DNA of 64,000 bases from Escherichia phage vB_EcoM-G3G7. Each line of letters opens with the position of its first letter. The stretch's first letter is position 1. The notes beneath the pieces are model-generated. The model did not search any database. It was given only the letters and a program-made list of their open reading frames with translations, and was not told the origin of the DNA. The DNA lies in the sequence record MZ234040.1. One strand, written 5' to 3'. Shown piece after piece: positions 15,887 to 45,003 of this stretch. The position numbers and the translations under genes are program-made.

Positions 15887-16057
15887 AGTTTAAAATTTTT
15901 TCATAAAACTATATACATCAGTAGTTGATTATGGTACTATATCAATATCAACTACTGATACAGAAAACAACTTGAAGAATAAAATGGATAATTCGTTAAA
16001 GGTGCGCTGATACTCTTCTGAAACGCATCGCTCCAATGTTCAATTAATGAGGAAATT

Positions 16058-23889: not shown

Positions 23890-23919
23890 GTTTACATACC
23901 ACAAGGACCGTGGTACTAT
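23890..23919 (+). promoter_or_regulatory. T4-type early promoter with AT-rich upstream element
   Basis: AAAAAATTTTCACAAAAC then GTTTAC 23890-23895, 18-nt spacer, TACTAT 23914-23919. Confidence 0.6.
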
Positions 23920-26006: not shown

Positions 26007-27335
26007 ATGCAACTGAATAATCGTGATTTAAAAAGTATCATTGATAATGAAGCATTGGCTTATGCTATGTACACGGTTGAAAATCGTGCCATTCCAAATA
26101 TGATTGACGGATTTAAGCCAGTTCAACGATTTGTTATTGCTCGAGCTCTTGATTTGGCACGAGGAAATAAAGATAAGTTTCACAAACTCGCTTCTATCGC
26201 AGGCGGTGTAGCGGACCTTGGATATCACCATGGCGAAAACTCTGCGCAAGACGCAGGTGCTTTGATGGCTAACACTTGGAATAATAACTTTCCTCTGTTA
26301 GATGGTCAAGGAAACTTTGGTTCTCGTACCGTCCAAAAAGCAGCAGCAAGTCGTTATATTTTTGCTCGTGTAAGTAAAAATTTCTATAACGTATATAAAG
26401 ATACTGAATATGCTCCGGTACATCAAGATAAAGAACACATTCCGCCTGCTTTCTATTTGCCTATTATTCCTACTGTTCTTCTTAATGGCGTTTCCGGTAT
26501 TGCAACTGGTTATGCAACTTACATTCTTCCTCATAGTGTTTCTTCTGTCAAGAAAGCTGTACTGCAAGCTCTTCAAGGAAAGAAAGTAACTAAACCGAAG
26601 GTAGAATTCCCAGAATTTCGTGGTGAAGTCGTTGAAATTGATGGGCAATATGAAATTCGTGGAACATATAAGTTTACTTCACGAACTCAAATGCATATCA
26701 CTGAGATTCCATATAAGTATGATCGTGAAACTTATGTGAGTAAAATCTTAGACCCGCTTGAAGATAAAGGCTTCATTACATGGGATGATGCTTGTGGTGA
26801 GCATGGCTTTGGCTTCAAAGTTAAATTCCGAAAAGAATACTCTTTGAGCGATAATGAAGAAGAACGCCATGCAAAAATTATGAAAGACTTCGGACTGATT
26901 GAGCGTCGTTCTCAGAATATTACAGTCATTAATGAGAAAGGAAAGCTGCAAGTTTACGATAACGTAGTTGATTTAATCAAAGACTTCGTTGAAGTTCGTA
27001 AAACTTATGTCCAAAAACGAATTGATAACAAAATCAAAGAAACTGAATCAGCATTTCGTTTAGCTTTTGCCAAGGCACATTTCATTAAGAAAGTAATTTC
27101 AGGTGAAATTGTTGTACAAGGTAAAACTCGCAAAGAACTGACCGAAGAACTTTCTAAAATTGATATGTATTCTTCTTATGTTGATAAACTAGTTGGAATG
27201 AACATTTTTCATATGACTTCCGACGAAGCAAAGAAACTTGCTGAAGAAGCTAAAGCCAAAAAAGAAGAAAACGAATATTGGAAAACTACTGATGTAGTTA
27301 CAGAATACACCAAAGATTTAGAGGAAATCAAATGA
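26007..27335 (+). CDS. 52: DNA topoisomerase II medium subunit gp52 (GyrA-like)
   Basis: 442 aa as T4 gp52. Confidence 0.85.
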   Translation: MQLNNRDLKSIIDNEALAYAMYTVENRAIPNMIDGFKPVQRFVIARALDLARGNKDKFHKLASIAGGVADLGYHHGENSAQDAGALMANTWNNNFPLLDGQGNFGSRTVQKAAASRYIFARVSKNFYNVYKDTEYAPVHQDKEHIPPAFYLPIIPTVLLNGVSGIATGYATYILPHSVSSVKKAVLQALQGKKVTKPKVEFPEFRGEVVEIDGQYEIRGTYKFTSRTQMHITEIPYKYDRETYVSKILDPLEDKGFITWDDACGEHGFGFKVKFRKEYSLSDNEEERHAKIMKDFGLIERRSQNITVINEKGKLQVYDNVVDLIKDFVEVRKTYVQKRIDNKIKETESAFRLAFAKAHFIKKVISGEIVVQGKTRKELTEELSKIDMYSSYVDKLVGMNIFHMTSDEAKKLAEEAKAKKEENEYWKTTDVVTEYTKDLEEIK

Positions 27336-27481
27336 GTCCATTCATAGGTATTACAAGCGCGGCATTAGTATCTGGTGGCATTTTACTGGCGGGTTTAGGT
27401 GTTGTTCCTGCCGTAGCAGGAGGTCTTCTTGCGTTCGGCATTCAACGTGTTATCATGACAGTTATCACAGTCATGCAGTAA
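27332..27481 (+). CDS. Small membrane protein, 49 aa
   Basis: ATG overlapping the gene 52 stop; Gly/Ala-rich hydrophobic. Confidence 0.35.
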   Translation: MSPFIGITSAALVSGGILLAGLGVVPAVAGGLLAFGIQRVIMTVITVMQ

Positions 27482-27486
27482 TTTTA

Positions 27487-27512
27487 GGGAGAGCCGAGGC
27501 TCTCCCTTTTTT
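27487..27512 (+). terminator. Intrinsic terminator
   Basis: gggagagc-cgag-gctctccc followed by TTTTTT. Confidence 0.7.
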
Positions 27513-27536
27513 ATTTCAAAAATTTTTCACAAAACG

Positions 27537-27566
27537 GTTTACAACCAAAGCATACTGTGGTACTAT
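27537..27566 (+). promoter_or_regulatory. T4-type early promoter with AT-rich upstream element
   Basis: AAAAATTTTTCACAAAAC, GTTTAC 27537-27542, 18-nt spacer, TACTAT 27561-27566. Confidence 0.6.
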
Positions 27567-27614
27567 ACAACTATCAAATAAATGAACTGAAACAAACAAC
27601 CCGGAGATACAAAA

Positions 27615-27842
27615 ATGAAATTTAAAATCGAAAACGAAATCGTTAAAGCTAAAAATGCTCTGACTGCTAACAAACTGGTTGTAGATGGTATTGAATATGA
27701 TATCTGTGGAGTTCGTGAAGAAAAACCTGGTGTTCTGACTTTCTTCACAATGATTTTTAAATTTAAAGGTGACACAGAATTCAAACAGTTTGATTTTGCC
27801 CATGAAGACGAAATCGAAGTTCGTAATCTGAACATTAAGTAA
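27615..27842 (+). CDS. Hypothetical protein, 75 aa
   Basis: GGAGA RBS; flanked by near-identical promoter-leader repeats. Confidence 0.45.
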   Translation: MKFKIENEIVKAKNALTANKLVVDGIEYDICGVREEKPGVLTFFTMIFKFKGDTEFKQFDFAHEDEIEVRNLNIK

Positions 27843-27881
27843 GTACTTTATTAGAGCTCTTGAAAAAGAGTGCAAAAAAGT

Positions 27882-27910
27882 GTTTACTTCTGCTTTAAAC
27901 ATGATACTAT
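27882..27910 (+). promoter_or_regulatory. T4-type early promoter
   Basis: GTTTAC 27882-27887, 17-nt spacer, TACTAT 27905-27910; leader shares CTATCAAATAAATGAACTGAAAC with 27566-27594. Confidence 0.55.
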
Positions 27911-27947
27911 AGACCTATCAAATAAATGAACTGAAACGGAGATTAAA

Positions 27948-28583
27948 ATGTCTAAAGTAACTTACATCATCAAAGCTTCTAACGATGTTCTGAATGAAAA
28001 AACTGCTGCGATTTTAATTACTATTGCTAAGAAAGATTTCATTACAGCTGCAGAAGTTCGTGAGGTGCATCCAGATTTAGGTAACGCAGTAGTTAATAGT
28101 AATATTGGGGTATTGATTAAAAAAGGCCTGGTGGAGAAATCTGGTGATGGATTAATCATTACGGGTGAAGCTCAGGATATTATTTCAAATGCAGCAACTT
28201 TATACGCACAGGAAAACGCTCCGGAACTGCTGAAAAAACGAGCAACTCGTAAAGCTCGTGAGATTACTTCTGATATGGAAGAAGATAAAGACCTCATGTT
28301 AAAACTTTTAGATGAAAATGGATTTGTTCTTAAAAAGGTTGAAACTTATCGTAGTAATTATCTCGCTATTTTAGAAAAACGCACTCACGGAATTCGTAAT
28401 TTTGAAATTAACAACAATGGAAATATGCGAATTTTTGGATACAAAATGATGGAACATCATATTCAGAAATTTACTGACATCGGAATGTCATGTAAAATCG
28501 CTAAAAACGGTAATGTGTATCTTGACATTAAACGCTCGGCAGAAAACATTGAAGCTGTAATCACTGTAGCATCTGAACTGTGA
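27948..28583 (+). CDS. motA: Middle-transcription activator MotA
   Basis: 211 aa as T4 MotA. Confidence 0.85.
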   Translation: MSKVTYIIKASNDVLNEKTAAILITIAKKDFITAAEVREVHPDLGNAVVNSNIGVLIKKGLVEKSGDGLIITGEAQDIISNAATLYAQENAPELLKKRATRKAREITSDMEEDKDLMLKLLDENGFVLKKVETYRSNYLAILEKRTHGIRNFEINNNGNMRIFGYKMMEHHIQKFTDIGMSCKIAKNGNVYLDIKRSAENIEAVITVASEL

Positions 28584-28593
28584 GGAATAAATA

Positions 28594-28938
28594 ATGAACA
28601 AGTTAGAAATTGTCAATGAACTTCGTCGTTGTGCAGAACCCACTCAGGAGGGGTGGGACATCTGGTACCATGGGGCTTATCTTGGAACTATTGTTAAGGT
28701 TAGAACTGGGTTATATTTAATTATTCGTGAAAATTCTGAATTACCTAACGGAGTAGCTCCTGGCGGTGTACGTAAAAACTTCATGGCAGCGATAAGTTCC
28801 TTTACGGATGCAGCTTACGAAATTTACCTTGCTGATTATAAAGAATTTCAGGAATCTCAACCAGTTATTCGCTCAATTGGCGTTAACAAAGCTCAACAGA
28901 AAACTTTGTGGCAACGTATTAAAGGATGGTTTAAATGA
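28594..28938 (+). CDS. Hypothetical protein, 114 aa
   Basis: ORF with GAGGAA upstream. Confidence 0.45.
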
Positions 28939-32207: not shown

Positions 32208-34464
32208 TGTTGTTAGAATTTAAAATATTTACTAATTTTGCGAGCAATTTTAGTAAAGAAAGGAGTTTTCAATTCTTTAATTTCTTCACTCATTTCCTGA
32301 ATAGCCTTAATTAAAAGAGCATTCACAGCAGAGTTAGAAATTGTCAGAACATCAGATCCATCAACTTCAACTTTAGATACAGCTTCCGGTAATTCCTTTT
32401 CAAGGTCCTGAGCAATAATACCAACTTCACGTTTAATAACACTACGGTCTTTAATAGACTTAACTTTATCGTAAATATAAACTTTCAGTCGACATACTTT
32501 TTCAAGTGCTCCGTTTTCTAGCTCTTTTTTATTAATCTTAAGACGACCATCGGAACGAATATACACATCGTTAAAGTTACCATTACCAGGAGAATAGAAA
32601 GTACCGTCGTAATGAAATTCAAATACCGCGTTAGGGTGTCCAGCCGCTGGTGATGCCTCCGCAGATCCAACACGAATAATTGCTTGCCCCCAATTGTTAG
32701 GGACACGACGAATACCAAGATCGACGGCAGTTACAAACCCTTGATTGGTGATTACACTTCTTCCTTTGAGAATCGGATAATAACAATCCTGTGAAACATA
32801 ACCATGATCGACGAATATTGGTGCTTCTACTCGCCATTGGTTGCCCCAATCACCCGGTTGTCTAGCAATCCATCCAGAACCGTTAATGTGTACACGATCG
32901 CGGTTAACGTTAACCATTGCGATATTTTGTGGATTTAGCGAAATCTCACCATTGTTTGTGATATGTACTGCCGCCTGAGTAGCATAGCTATAAAATGCTA
33001 GCGAATTATCAGCACCACCCTTACCAATATACCAGTTACCACTCCCGTCTACGTCACCACGAATATGCAAAGCATTACCAGCAGTTGTTGATAATACAAT
33101 AGAATCACCCGGACGTTTAATAATCAATCTACCTTCGGATTCAATTTCACCAAAAAATTTAGTCTTAATTGCACCAGTCGCTAAAGTACGTTCAGTGGAA
33201 AAATGAACGCCTTTGCTGTCTTCTAACTGAATAATGTTATCGCGCGCATTATTACTATCACCCCAATGATTAAACCGGAAATAATCACGTGATTGCTTAC
33301 CACCCGCTTCAAACGTCAGCGTACCTTTACTTAAATTAACATCACCGCTAAAGGTAGCAGCAAGAGAATCACGTTCTAATTTTAAAACGTTAGCACCACT
33401 AGTACCACCTAAAGTAACATCACCAGTTCTCAATTCATAACGGAAAGGTCTATTTGTATTATAGTTTCCATTTTGATCATCTTCGTTGGTGGAAAGAATA
33501 TAAAGATTCTCTCCATAAGTACGGAAAATTGTACCAAAATTTCCGGCATACATACGGAATGCATTAGATGAGCGAAATTTAACTTCTGTTTTAAAAGTGG
33601 TAGTGTTATTAAGGTTAACAGTAGAGTTAAAATTGGTAGGAGCACCGAAGTTAACTGCGCCATTAAAATCTTGTTGAGCTGTCCATGTGTGGCGACCATC
33701 TTCAAGAACAACACGGCGGACTGTGCAAGTTCTATTTCCAGAATTACCGAACACACGAACGACAAAATAACGGTAGTTTGTCTGGGATACAGTACCGCGC
33801 CAAACCTGAACAGTACGCCCTGTGCTAGTGTGTTCGCTAGGACCAACGGAAAACATAACCAGGTTTCCGTCAATCGTCCCCCAATCCATATTTGCTGGCA
33901 TATTCTTTATTTTGTTCAAAGGAACACTAAACATACTACCAGGGACAAAATCAAAGGTTTGCCAATCTAGCTCCGCTAATTGAGTTTTAATACCACCCAT
34001 ACCCAAAGTAATTGGCAAAGAGTAAGATGTATATACTTCGTTCCATGTACCCCACGCGCCACCGGTATATGCACGCTCAAAAATACGATCGCGAGTAGTT
34101 GCACCCGTTCCGGCAGTAGTAAATTTTTGGAAAATAGCACCGCCAGAAGCACGCTGTTTAACTTCCAGCAAACCAACAATAACAGTCGGCAAACCTTCAC
34201 CGGTAGGACAGTTAATAACGGCATCAGTGCCTAAAATATTATATAACCCAGGAGTTTTAAAATCATTCAGATCTCCATCATAGAAAGTCGCTGGTGTGAC
34301 ATTACCGACTTGTTGCCACGGTCCCCATTTAGGCGCGGAAGCATCCCACGCGGCAGCAAGACAACGAGTATATACAACACCAAATCTGGTTGTATATCTT
34401 TGTGTACGAGAATAGTTTCCACCTTCATATACTTCCAAAAGACCTTGAGCTGACGACCCCTTTT

Positions 34465-34591
34465 CTGGGAAATTTCTGTCAAAGGTAGCAATGGAATTTG
34501 AACTATTTCGCCACAAACCAAAGTGTTCAGCGCCTCCTAGATCATTAAGATCAATTGTTGTTGACAGTGGACGAGTACCGGATTGAATATT
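34465..34591. repeat. Tandem direct repeat, unit 1 (127 bp)
   Basis: Exact copy of 34592-34718. Confidence 0.9.
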
Positions 34592-34718
34592 CTGGGAAAT
34601 TTCTGTCAAAGGTAGCAATGGAATTTGAACTATTTCGCCACAAACCAAAGTGTTCAGCGCCTCCTAGATCATTAAGATCAATTGTTGTTGACAGTGGACG
34701 AGTACCGGATTGAATATT
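34592..34718. repeat. Tandem direct repeat, unit 2 (127 bp)
   Basis: Exact copy of 34465-34591; boundaries share TTC microhomology with flanks. Confidence 0.9.
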
Positions 34719-37172: not shown

Positions 37173-40100
37173 TTATTCAATCCACTCAAATTTAACAGTT
37201 TTATTCACTGGGTCAGGAATAATGCGAACATTACCAATTCGCAAGAAATCGCGAATAGTAAGATTACCTATTATTCCATTATCAGATGGGATCGCTCCTA
37301 TATCTGAAGGTTGAGGAGGGTTACCTCCGTCAAATACCTGAACAAAACTTGACCAAGAGTTTTTGGTTTTCTGCCATGTACGTGTCCAGCGAGTGGTACG
37401 TGCTTCTGGGGTCGTTGGATAAGTAATCCAATCTTGGTAAAGTGAATCAAGTGTGTTACCAAACTGAGTCAATGTACCAGGAGATTTAACTTCTTCACCA
37501 CGTTCTAAGTATGGAAGTCCAGTCACTTCATTAGTTTTTTCAACCATTTTAAAATAACCCGGGAACTGGTTATAAGTGGCTGAATCATTAATATCGATTG
37601 ACCAGAATCCTACTGTATCAGATGTTGGCGCACGGGTATATAAATCAGAGGTTTTAGTACCCTGAGAACGAATTCTCGAGTTAACAGTCAAACCACCCGA
37701 ACTTATAGTAGCACCTTTTGCAATGATTAAGCTTTCACCAATCGTTACTTGGCCAGATGCATTATTAATAGCTAAAGGACGCAATCCATTAAATCCGCCA
37801 GTTTGATCACCCGATGCAGTAAGCATAAAATTCGTTACTGACCCATCATTGCGAACAATGAAACCATAATTTCCGTTAATAGCACGGAAAGCATTTGCGC
37901 TTCGAGAAATAATTTCACCAGTTGCAGTGACTGAATTACCAAATGTTGCTACACCATTTGCATTCAATGTTCCTGAAGCATTAACATTTATCGGTGTTAC
38001 TGTACCGTTGATATTAAATGTTATATTTCCAGCTTTATTACGCTGAGAATAAAAATGACTAGACGTTTCATCACTAACTTCAAATACGGTAGAACGTGTT
38101 GTGTCTGATTCCCCACTAAATTGATTTCCCCACACTCTGACTGTCATCGTTTGAGCCGGGTTTGTTCCAGTTTGAGGTCCTTTCTCAAAAATCAGACGAG
38201 TTGCCGTTCCAGTATTAGAAATAGTTAATGTACTATTTGCTGAAACTGATCCACCGAATGTAGCAGTACTAGATGATACAAGAGGGGCACTCAGATTCGT
38301 TTGTTGGGTTAAGGTTAGTGAACCATTAACTGTTTGTGCAATGTCCCTACGAATGAACTGGAGCGAATCTAGACCATCTAATAAATTACTATCTACAGCT
38401 TTTGCTTTTAATGGCAAATAATTTGCTAATACGCGATTTAATTCATATGGTGATACTGCATAACCATTTTTCTCATATGATTCTAATGGCTGTGTTGAAC
38501 CTACCGTATCATTACCAACAAACGTTAATGAACCAGAAGAAGTTTTAACAAACCCTCTTATCAGAGTAGTTGCTGCCCAAGTTGGTTCACTCTGCACAAT
38601 CCATTTTAAATTTTTTGGAGATACAGCAGTATTTGCTGACGTTCCAGTCACAGTTTCAGACTGAGTTGCAACTTTAATAACACCTTCTTGCGATTCGGTA
38701 GATTTAGTACCTAAAAGCTTTTTAGGAGTTATTAAAACATTATCTAATGTTCCTGCAGCAGCTTCAACTTGTGTAGCTACACGAAGTGTACCACGCTGTG
38801 TCTCATTTGCTTCAAGAATATTAAGGGTATAATGGTCCCAGAGAGTTCCTGATTCAACTAATCCAGATAGAGCAACAACAGAAGTACGATCAGTACTATT
38901 AAATCTGGTTTTAATTTTTAATGGTGTAGAGATACGAGTATCGTCGACGCCTGCGTCGAATTCAACTTGCGTAGCAATTTCAGCTATACCACTTAAACTT
39001 TCAGTTGCTCTACGGTCATTTAAAGTTTTAGGAGTGACTGCACGAGTATAGTCAGTTCCTGTATTAACTTCACTTTGCGTAGCAATTTCAATTAAACCAA
39101 TTCTTCCATCAGTTGATGTCTTTTTATGTAACGTTTCTGGCGTTACAACCGCATTTGCCCATCCTTCTTGGCTTTGTCCAGCAATTACTTCACTTTCAAC
39201 TGCTAAAATTACTGCGCCTTGTTGCGTTGGAGTAGCTTTATACTGATCCAAAGCTTTAGGTGAAACAACTAAATTATTAGTGTTTTTATTATAAACATTC
39301 GTACCATTTAATTCACGACTAGAAGCTGGAGTAGCTCCTGCGGTAGATACAAAAGTTACAATACCCGATAATGTTTCAGAACCTTGACGAGCTTGAAGCT
39401 TTTTAGGAGTGATGATTGTAGTATCATCAGTACCTGTATTAGTTTCCTGCTGCGTAGCAATTTCAGCGACACCTCTGCGAGTTTCTGTAGCAGTTCTTTC
39501 ATTCAGCTTTTTAGGAGTGATGATAAGGTCATCTGCAAAAGAGAATGTGGTGTTCTGATTCACTTGAGCAGTAGTTGCTATTCTTGCAATACCTCTGCGA
39601 GTTTCTGTAGCAGTACGATTAGCTAACGTTTCTGGAGTAATTGCCAATTCTTTTTGCGGAGAATTTTCTAAATCAGCATTTGCTTGAGCTTGTGTAGCTA
39701 AAGCAATTACGCCTAATCTTGCTCTAGTAGAATTATTTAAAGAATCGACTCTTTCAACTGTTGGAACGTTTTGCTGTACAACCCAGTATTTTCCATCAGA
39801 ATCTTCTATATAAGCAAGTTGCAAAACTGGTACATAATTAGTTTCACCGTTAAAAACTAATTCTTGAACTGTTACCCATTCAGCTTCAGGCGGATATTCT
39901 GAACGTTTTGGGAATTGCAGCAATTGAACTGAAGAAGCAATTTTATCTTCACCAGCAGCTTTGATTTTAACTGTTTGTCCTTTTCTCATGTAATTCATGG
40001 AAATTTTAACAGTATCACCAACAGAAATATCAGTCGGAAGCTGAAGTTCAATTGTTTGGGTTGTTCCATTATTCGCGCCAAATACCATGACTTCTTCATT

Positions 40101-44902: not shown

Positions 44903-44924
44903 TGGATTATATTACTAATTAATT

Positions 44925-44949
44925 GGGGACCCTAGAGGTCCCCTTTTTT
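44925..44949 (+). terminator. Intrinsic terminator after gene 32
   Basis: ggggacc-ctaga-ggtcccc followed by TTTTTT. Confidence 0.7.
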
Positions 44950-44973
44950 ATTTTAAAAATTTTTCACAAAACT

Positions 44974-45003
44974 GTTTACATCCTTGTTCTTCCATGGTAC
45001 TAT
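44974..45003 (+). promoter_or_regulatory. T4-type early promoter with AT-rich upstream element
   Basis: AAAAATTTTTCACAAAAC, GTTTAC 44974-44979, 18-nt spacer, TACTAT 44998-45003. Confidence 0.6.

Follow-up and report, generated by a model that had tools for sequence, protein, structure and literature searches.

The region upstream of motA, the gene for the activator of middle transcription, was analyzed in a window of 64,000 nucleotides (nt) of Escherichia phage vB_EcoM-G3G7 (MZ234040.1), a T4-like Tequatrovirus. The window is given as one strand, all coordinates are window positions unless another phage is named, and all features of the locus lie on the plus strand. Between the resident genes motA.1 and motA, an open reading frame (ORF) of 75 amino acids (aa), here called ORF75 (27615–27842; phrog_10955), is bracketed by two direct repeats that carry promoter and leader sequences. 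It is very probable that this arrangement represents an early-gene cassette of the promoter-early stem-loop (PeSL) type, located in a recombination-prone slot between motA.1 and motA. The cassette is part of a Dhakavirus-like patch (27578–27947) that consists of a leader, a 5′ untranslated region (UTR), ORF75, a second stem-loop, a second promoter, a second leader and the Shine-Dalgarno (SD) sequence of motA.

Comparison with T4 and with Dhakavirus JS10 revealed that the identities to these two phages change within the locus. Gene 52 (26007–27335), encoding the topoisomerase II medium subunit, and motA.1 are 96.8% identical to T4 and ∼73% identical to JS10. The 49-aa gene motA.1 (27332–27481; phrog_3487), which was taken from the ORF list and is near-identical to the annotated MotA.1 of T4, is the last resident gene 5′ of the cassette. 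The following promoter region, up to position 27577, is identical to T4 except for one substitution and one 1-nt indel upstream, and shows 67% identity to JS10 over 27538–27577. The segment 27578–27842 (leader, UTR and ORF75) is absent in T4 and matches JS10 at 263 of 265 positions. The next segment (27843–27947; stem-loop 2, promoter, leader and SD) matches JS10 at 100 of 106 positions and has no counterpart in T4, where a single promoter of the upstream type is found. Within this part, 27869–27937 agrees with the JS10 promoter at 68 of 69 positions. motA itself (27948–28583; 211 aa; Pfam MotA_activ and MotCF) is a T4-type resident gene, with 98.1% nucleotide identity to T4 and 52–67% to JS10.

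The points at which the sequence changes its type could be narrowed down to a few bases. On the left, T4-type sequence gives way to Dhakavirus-type sequence within CTATCAA, directly behind position 27570, the last T4-specific base. On the right, T4-type sequence resumes in GGAGATTAAAATGTCTAAA, ahead of ∼27957, where motA has its first T4-specific base; the SD of motA reads GGAGATTAAAATG in the Dhakavirus type (J-type) and GGAGATTAGAAAATG in the T4 type. The right junction is held by the motA SD and spacer, a RegB-type site (GGAGATTAAA ahead of the ATG; 27938–27947, with the SD GGAG at 27938–27941). Both ends of the patch lie within short regulatory blocks that are conserved between the genera. 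In the Dhakaviruses JS10 and IME281, ORF75 (98.7% aa identity) is found at the same place, between two ∼65-nt direct repeats which take in the whole promoter and leader. The promoter type directly upstream of motA in the window is foreign to T4 and native to Dhakavirus, and Dhakavirus KIT01, in which the slot is empty, carries the same promoter and leader there as its only, J-type, promoter. Together with the pattern of identities, this argues for a transfer from a Dhakavirus-like donor to a Tequatrovirus, although the direction of transfer is inferred.

The direct repeat has a length of 36 nt (27558–27593 and 27902–27937), is identical at 33 of 36 positions and has its copies 344 nt apart; ORF75 is indeed bracketed by direct repeats, as the preliminary description of this locus had stated. 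The 3′ part of the repeat is the 23-mer CTATCAAATAAATGAACTGAAAC, which occurs exactly twice in the 64-kb window (27571–27593 and 27915–27937). No further copy with up to 3 mismatches was found in the window, and 0 were expected from 100 shuffles. Copy 1 belongs to the early promoter Pe1, the resident T4-type motA early promoter, which covers 27514–27566 including its A/T-rich upstream region (TTTTTTATTTCAAAAATTTTTCACAAAAC). Copy 2 belongs to the Dhakavirus-type motA promoter Pe2, which covers 27874–27910 including its A-rich upstream region (GCAAAAAAGTG). Pe1 consists of a -35 element TTTACA (27538–27543), a 17-nt spacer, a TG at 27558–27559 and a -10 element TACTAT (27561–27566), and Pe2 of TTTACT (27883–27888), a 16-nt spacer, a TG at 27902–27903 and TACTAT (27905–27910). 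Both promoters fit the σ70-like consensus TTTACW-N17-TAYWAT published for PST/T4 PeSL promoters (PMC2839356, PMC4122927) and have a TG-extended -10 element, with the Pe2 spacer being one base short. Given the identity with the T4 motA promoter and the fit to the consensus, both are predicted to be active.

The two promoter-leader copies had been described as near-identical. This holds for the leader, with its 23 identical nucleotides, for the extended -10 element and for the start region, but not for the -35 and spacer regions, which are alike merely at the consensus level; the repeat thus consists of the extended -10 element, the start region and the leader. When the 18 early-promoter-like sites of the window were compared in pairs over the 30 nt after the -10 element (153 pairs; mean 10.8, standard deviation 3.4), the Pe1/Pe2 pair had the highest identity (26/30, with 23 consecutive identical positions). 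The repeat starts with a motif of ∼20 nt (TGGTACTATAnAnCTATCAA) that is common to several early promoters of the window, e.g. those at 23891 and 44975, at which, as at other early promoters, TGGTACTATAnAnCTATC(A/G) recurs; the part specific for the pair is ATAAATGAACTGAAAC. Repeat families D1, D2, D4, D6 and D8 tie the promoter at 27505–27576 to sites at ∼15.9, 23.9, 24.4, 44.9, 45.7 and 61.7 kb. Family D8 (27479–27546 and 44916–44983; 68 nt, 78% identical) comprises the terminator hairpin, the A/T-rich region and the -35 element. The sharing of promoter motifs and the paralog at 44916–44983 indicate that early promoter units form repeat families in this genome, as is the case for PeSLs. The hairpins of the D8 pair differ in sequence and are located at the same position, and constitute a second PeSL-like unit family in the window. 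Separately, the early promoter at 15932–15967 is followed by a leader (ATCAACTACTGATACAGAA; family D7) very similar to the motA leader of the T4 type, a leader that the motA site of the window lacks. Early transcription units appear to share or swap leaders as well as promoters.

The terminator hairpin that had been noted ahead of the first promoter was confirmed as a strong stem (27486–27507) followed by a T-run (27508–27513), identified both in a terminator scan and by RNA folding. This stem-loop 1 has 9 base pairs, of which 6 are G-C, and a folding energy of -17.6 kcal/mol (z = -4.26). Its sequence is identical in T4, and other phage records annotate a terminator at the same place. Stem-loop 2 (GCTCTT-GAAA-AAGAGT; 27856–27871), upstream of Pe2, is weak, with a 6-bp stem, no U-run and a folding energy of -9.5 kcal/mol (z = -1.7). 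The JS10 counterpart is a perfect 8-bp hairpin (-14.5 kcal/mol, z = -4.1), and in the alignment with Dhakavirus the 3′ half of stem-loop 2 is replaced by upstream sequence of the Pe1 type. Stem-loop 2 is a degraded form of the 8-bp Dhakavirus hairpin. Pe2 is a chimera in which A-rich upstream sequence as in the upstream Dhakavirus copy (GTGCAAAAAAGTG) is combined with the -35 variant of the downstream one, and through this chimerism the hairpin was reduced from 8 bp in JS10 to 6 bp in the window. The mosaic structure of Pe2 points to recombination within the repeats themselves. A change at the motA.1 terminator was observed in another Tequatrovirus, Shigella phage TB004 (MW822011), in which the 5′ half of this terminator is fused to the promoter spacer by a deletion (GGGAGAGCCTCGGCTCT joined to ACCAAAGCATACTGTGG; 790–815 in TB004) that removes the T-run, the upstream region and the -35 element of the motA promoter. 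Either a genuine variant or an error in the sequencing may account for this.

The distribution of the cassette was studied in public phage records. The 701 bases around the locus are 100% identical to Escherichia phage vB_EcoM-CHD2BS1. The region was matched by 719 phage records, of which 127 span the whole 701 bp, and most remaining records (T4, T6, RB51, wV7 etc.) match in two pieces with a ∼360-bp interval. In T4, no ORF is present between motA.1 and motA; the same terminator is followed by a single promoter that is identical to Pe1 up to CTATCAA, after which the motA leader reads CTACTGATACAGAATTACGGAGATTAGAAAATG, unlike the leader in the window. This T4-type single promoter-leader was found in 351 records. 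ORF75 at ≥95% aa identity was identified in 137 records, as a single copy in each. The cassette is a presence/absence polymorphism with a size equal to the spacing of the repeats. The comparison of the motA-upstream region in T-even genomes, which had been proposed as a check, thus demonstrated that the ORF is variable (351 T4-type single-site records vs ∼128 with the full cassette), and the ORF and repeats were neither invariant nor universally present. The junctions are identical in every cassette-bearing Tequatrovirus, which indicates one acquisition that then spread and not repeated insertions.

Recombination between the repeats is predicted to leave the -10 element and leader of copy 1 joined to the motA SD, and the records were searched for this deletion product. 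A single record, phage a48, matched it full-length at one place and without ORF75; its sequence corresponds exactly to the copy-1 -10 element, the leader and the motA SD. Of the 138 records with a J-type leader on a T4-type motA, a48 is the only one that lacks ORF75, and the other 137 match twice, as expected for the cassette. The Pe1 spacer of a48 differs from that of the window, and the same spacer variant is present in the cassette-bearing VIPECOOM03. The right flank of a48 is closest (98.6%) to the cassette-bearing phage a15. A search for the T4-type spacer followed by the J-type leader and motA yielded no exact single-piece match, the closest being a48 with its spacer variant, and a search for the a48 spacer variant joined to the T4-type leader also gave no exact match (best 95%). 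No clean cassette-bearing sister of a48 could be identified by its flanks, which are mosaic, with a left promoter resembling that of VIPECOOM03. Recombination between the repeats, with loss of the cassette from a48, is the most economical reading of these sequences. The proposal of the preliminary description that ORF75 is a shuffled accessory gene gains support both from this solo repeat and from the Dhakavirus-like patch with its ends in the -10/start block and the motA SD/ATG block.

Other occupants of the slot were found in related genera. Dhakavirus dhabil has the same two promoters, SD block (GGAGATACAAAAATG) and hairpin and carries an unrelated ORF of 71 aa (ORF71) as cargo; the swap between ORF75 and ORF71 extends almost exactly from start codon to stop codon. 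Further Dhakaviruses also carry ORF71, and 77 records, known Mosigviruses among them, encode it at ∼75% aa identity. In the one Mosigvirus examined (Shf125875), promoter repeats of ∼45 nt flank the ORF71 homolog, which is situated between gene 52 and motA. Moonvirus Merlin has a homolog of ORF75 (64%), followed by two further small ORFs ahead of motA, with promoter-like sequences in the three upstream regions that were read, i.e. 5′ of the ORF75 homolog, of the next ORF and of motA. Elsewhere, homologs of ORF75 occur beside a tRNA cluster in Jiaodavirus and in a different region in Gelderlandvirus and Karamvirus. The homolog in Karamvirus RZH is likewise flanked by an identical 21-nt -10/leader block. 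Promoter, leader and SD before the ORF75 homolog are nearly identical in Merlin (2440–2500) and RZH (2425–2500; TTGATATTATTACCTCATACCAAACAAACTGATAGAA..TCTTGGAGAATAAAATG), while the genomic loci differ. Judged from these sequences, the ORF75 homolog seems to travel together with its own promoter-leader.

In total, homologs of ORF75 with 57–100% identity were found in at least six Tevenvirinae genera, with the conserved motifs IEYDICGVRE and LTFFTMIF; such diverged homologs with conserved motifs indicate that ORF75 is a real gene. The AlphaFold model (predicted local distance difference test score, pLDDT, 89) has six strands, and the protein is predicted to be a small SH3-like (SH3/KOW-like) β-barrel. 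No match was found in Pfam, and PHROGs returned just a family of unknown function (phrog_10955). A search of 5.8 billion proteins gave 6 clusters, all from T4-like phages, and a scan of IMG/VR gave 5 loci, all in contexts already found; neither search gave a functional clue.

Based on these results, the following origin is proposed. The 370-bp stretch 27578–27947 would have been obtained from a Dhakavirus-like phage by recombination during co-infection, presumably by the homologous-recombination machinery of the phages. The left crossover would have occurred in the -10/start-site block (TACTATAnAnCTATCAA plus leader) and the right crossover in the motA SD/ATG block (GGAGATTAAAATGTCTAAA). Two routes can be envisaged. 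In the first, a T4-type and a Dhakavirus-type genome would have recombined by a double crossover or conversion patch with its ends in the -10/start and SD/ATG blocks. In the second, an excised circle would have been integrated by a single crossover with a recipient that already held a J-type leader. Integration of a mini-circle into a T4-type leader by a single crossover was rejected: it would have left the T4 leader before motA, and this is not seen. Since no T4 leader is present before motA, either the recipient was already J-type or a double crossover or conversion patch was involved. As the promoter-leader copies are now direct repeats, recombination between them could delete the cassette, giving the state found in a48, and the reverse reaction could insert a circular copy.

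The incoming piece would supply the gene located 3′ of it with a promoter and leader. ORF75, with its GGAG SD at 27603–27606 in GGAGATACAAAAATG, would be expressed as an early gene from the old motA promoter (Pe1), and motA would keep a dedicated early promoter (Pe2). Because stem-loop 2 is weak and lacks a U-run, transcripts from Pe1 probably read through into motA. The motA SD (GGAGAUUAAAA) fits the RegB/S1 consensus GGAGRAYARAA (PMC1702504) except at position 6, and the T4 motA SD differs from GGAGAUUAAAA at position 9 only; the SD of ORF75 (GGAGAUACAAA) fits the consensus less well than that of motA. T4 motA is a good substrate of RegB (PMC1702504). This and the fit to the consensus suggest that the post-transcriptional shut-off of motA is likely kept.

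Several observations weigh against this interpretation. In Tequatrovirus, the data show one acquisition and one deletion and not frequent shuffling, and a48 could instead be an unsampled ancestral empty site. With its weak stem-loop 2, the second unit in the window amounts to half a PeSL. For a recipient with a T4-type leader, the inferred crossovers would have had to rely on very short microhomologies (left, 7 nt; right, ∼12 nt). Patches of <50 bp are usually cited for recombination in T4, and the microhomologies here are shorter; unsampled intermediate sequences may have been involved in the exchange. Recombination was deduced from the comparison of genomes, and promoter function as well as the expression and role of ORF75 are predictions.

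An alternative explanation for the identical 23-nt leaders is that they are kept by selection for shared regulation, for example as a 5′-UTR element that binds a protein or small RNA and co-regulates ORF75 and motA. In line with this, the 23-mer is identical in both copies in ∼128 genomes and recurs in the leader ahead of motA in the Dhakaviruses JS10 and KIT01, and both mRNAs have a GGAG-type SD, with that of motA fitting the RegB site consensus. However, T4 is fully functional with a different motA leader, and a third leader variant (ATAAATGGTTATCGGAG) is present before motA in IME281 and dhabil. RNA folding detected no structure in the two leaders (0 and -2 kcal/mol, no better than shuffles), and a structured regulatory 5′ UTR was therefore rejected. 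An Rfam scan of 27300–28100 gave one terminator-like match, to the 3′ end of CrcZ on the minus strand, which was rejected as a chance match because it is below threshold (20.8 bits vs a gathering score of 95). A recent common origin of the two leaders is the simpler account of their identity, and shared regulation is considered an unlikely explanation.

Alternatively, the slot and ORF75 could be ancestral in Tevenvirinae and vertically inherited, with T4 and most Tequatroviruses having lost the cassette and no recent transfer between genera. The architecture is certainly old, as a two-promoter slot between gene 52/motA.1 and motA is present in Dhakavirus, Mosigvirus, Moonvirus and part of Tequatrovirus, and loss by recombination between repeats is plausible in view of a48. 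Yet the identity to JS10 amounts to 99% in the ORF and 94% in the promoter part of the patch, whereas the adjacent gene 52 and motA reach just 52–75%, and Pe2 is Dhakavirus-type, whereas Pe1 and all flanks are T4-type. Such a step in identity within a few bases cannot be produced by vertical descent, by which the ancestral scenario is largely refuted. Extreme purifying selection on synonymous and non-coding sites across all genera could revive it, but ORF75 shows only 57–70% aa identity in other genera. Vertical inheritance is hence hardly probable. The remaining possibility, a tandem duplication of the motA promoter-leader in situ with an ORF that arose or was captured locally, or else an assembly artefact, is extremely improbable: local duplication can give direct repeats around a short segment, and an exact 127-bp tandem duplication exists at 34463–34716 in the same window, but Pe1 and Pe2 show differences all along the -35 and spacer regions, diverged homologs of ORF75 are present in at least six genera, its fold is confidently predicted, the clear Dhakavirus source of Pe2 and the ORF refutes a duplication through the JS10 identities and the promoter alignment, and the same structure is present in >120 independently sequenced genomes.

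The cassette was compared with known systems of modular exchange. In the PeSL model, conserved promoter/stem-loop units serve as linkers for homologous recombination, by which small ORFs with their own transcription signals are inserted, deleted or replaced (PMC2839356, PMC4122927). Published cases are ORFan192 and ORFan210 of RB49/phi1 and ndd.4/.5 vs ORF268/269 of PST/T4 (Arbiol et al., 2010, PMC2839356; Comeau et al., 2014, PMC4122927); motA is not mentioned in Comeau et al. (2014, PMC4122927). The match to PeSL cassettes that had been suggested in the preliminary description is supported by the same composite unit, consisting of an A/T-rich region, an early promoter that follows the PST/T4 consensus, a stem-loop upstream (strong in the first unit only), and an SD with ATG, next to a variable ORF. 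In both systems, a small ORF of unknown function lies between two units, insertion, deletion or replacement between close relatives has its junctions inside the units, and units of similar sequence form a repeat family across the genome. Each unit ends on its 3′ side with the SD and start codon of the gene that follows (GGAGATACAAAAATG before ORF75 and GGAGATTAAAATG before motA), and the cassette supplies transcription signals and leaves the neighboring genes undisturbed. The PeSL stem-loop, a terminator or attenuator, corresponds to a strong predicted terminator in the first unit of the window and is vestigial in the second.

There are also differences. The best-conserved, recombining block here is the -10/start-site/leader together with the SD, whereas for RB49 ORF192 this role was proposed for the A/T-rich region. 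Stem-loop 2 is a degraded hairpin and no terminator, with read-through from Pe1 into motA being likely. The slot is located directly before the essential regulator motA and not within a run of ORFans, and transfer between genera, from Dhakavirus to Tequatrovirus, is documented. Excised mini-circles composed of the ORF and one chimeric unit are a feature of the PeSL model; at the present locus, the evidence for them is indirect and consists of the solo repeat of a48 and the chimeric Pe2 of the window. The locus fits a well-documented new case of the published PeSL-type shuffling and not a new mechanism. A more far-reaching view holds that the -10/start-site/leader and the A-rich GGAG SD blocks are a dedicated att-like target of directed exchange (e.g. 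protein-aided integration of mini-circles), with the position before motA as a true cassette-acceptor site of Tevenvirinae and with cargoes (ORF75 and ORF71) selected for acting with or on the MotA/AsiA/RNA-polymerase takeover machinery, next to a gene of which they would always be carried; it is regarded as improbable.

Conserved promoter/stem-loop linkers have also been described at the internal-protein (IP) loci of T-even phages (Repoila et al., 1994, discussed in PMC2839356). By the description in that paper, T4-type early promoters and weak A/T-rich stem-loops flank small, highly variable genes that T-even phages exchange in a fixed slot, as they do here. Locus and cargo are different, and ORF75 and ORF71 are not IPs; no capsid-targeting leader was seen in them, with no search aimed at one. 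Morons (Hendrix et al., 2000) and integron cassettes likewise bring a single accessory gene, along with the signals for its expression, to an intergenic position. Morons are reportedly inserted by illegitimate recombination without conserved linkers, and integron cassettes depend on attC sites and an integrase and usually have no promoter of their own. In contrast, the conserved promoter-leader provides the homology used here, and no dedicated recombinase is found nearby.

Some further features of the window were recorded. The ORF directly 3′ of motA (28594–28938) encodes 114 aa (phrog_1594) and has 109 aa in a48 and JS10. The T4 gene arn.4 is annotated with just 68 aa, and phrog_33982 matches residues 43–114 of the 114-aa ORF; T4 arn.4 may be truncated or mis-started. 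The perfect 127-bp tandem duplication (34463–34589 and 34590–34716) is situated within the long-tail-fibre gene 37 on the minus strand. Since 127 is not a multiple of 3, gene 37 is split into ORFs of 258 and 811 aa. Either the assembly is wrong here or a host-range determinant carries a genuine duplication that shifts the reading frame. A 68-nt unit is present in four diverged copies (63–72% identical), 120–483 nt apart, at 38665–39641 and is probably an internal repeat of a structural (fibre-like) gene.

For the biology of Tevenvirinae, the locus is of interest because public genomes provide an unusually complete natural series, which comprises the empty site, the donor type with long repeats, the cross-genus chimera, the solo-repeat deletion and the exchange for another cargo. 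The locus also indicates that motA, an essential regulator, can receive its promoter from another genus without harm. ORF75 and ORF71 are marked as early accessory genes, for which roles in host takeover or anti-defence would be worth testing. The current picture of promoter-mediated shuffling is supported and unchanged, and the locus offers a test system of a size suitable for the polymerase chain reaction.

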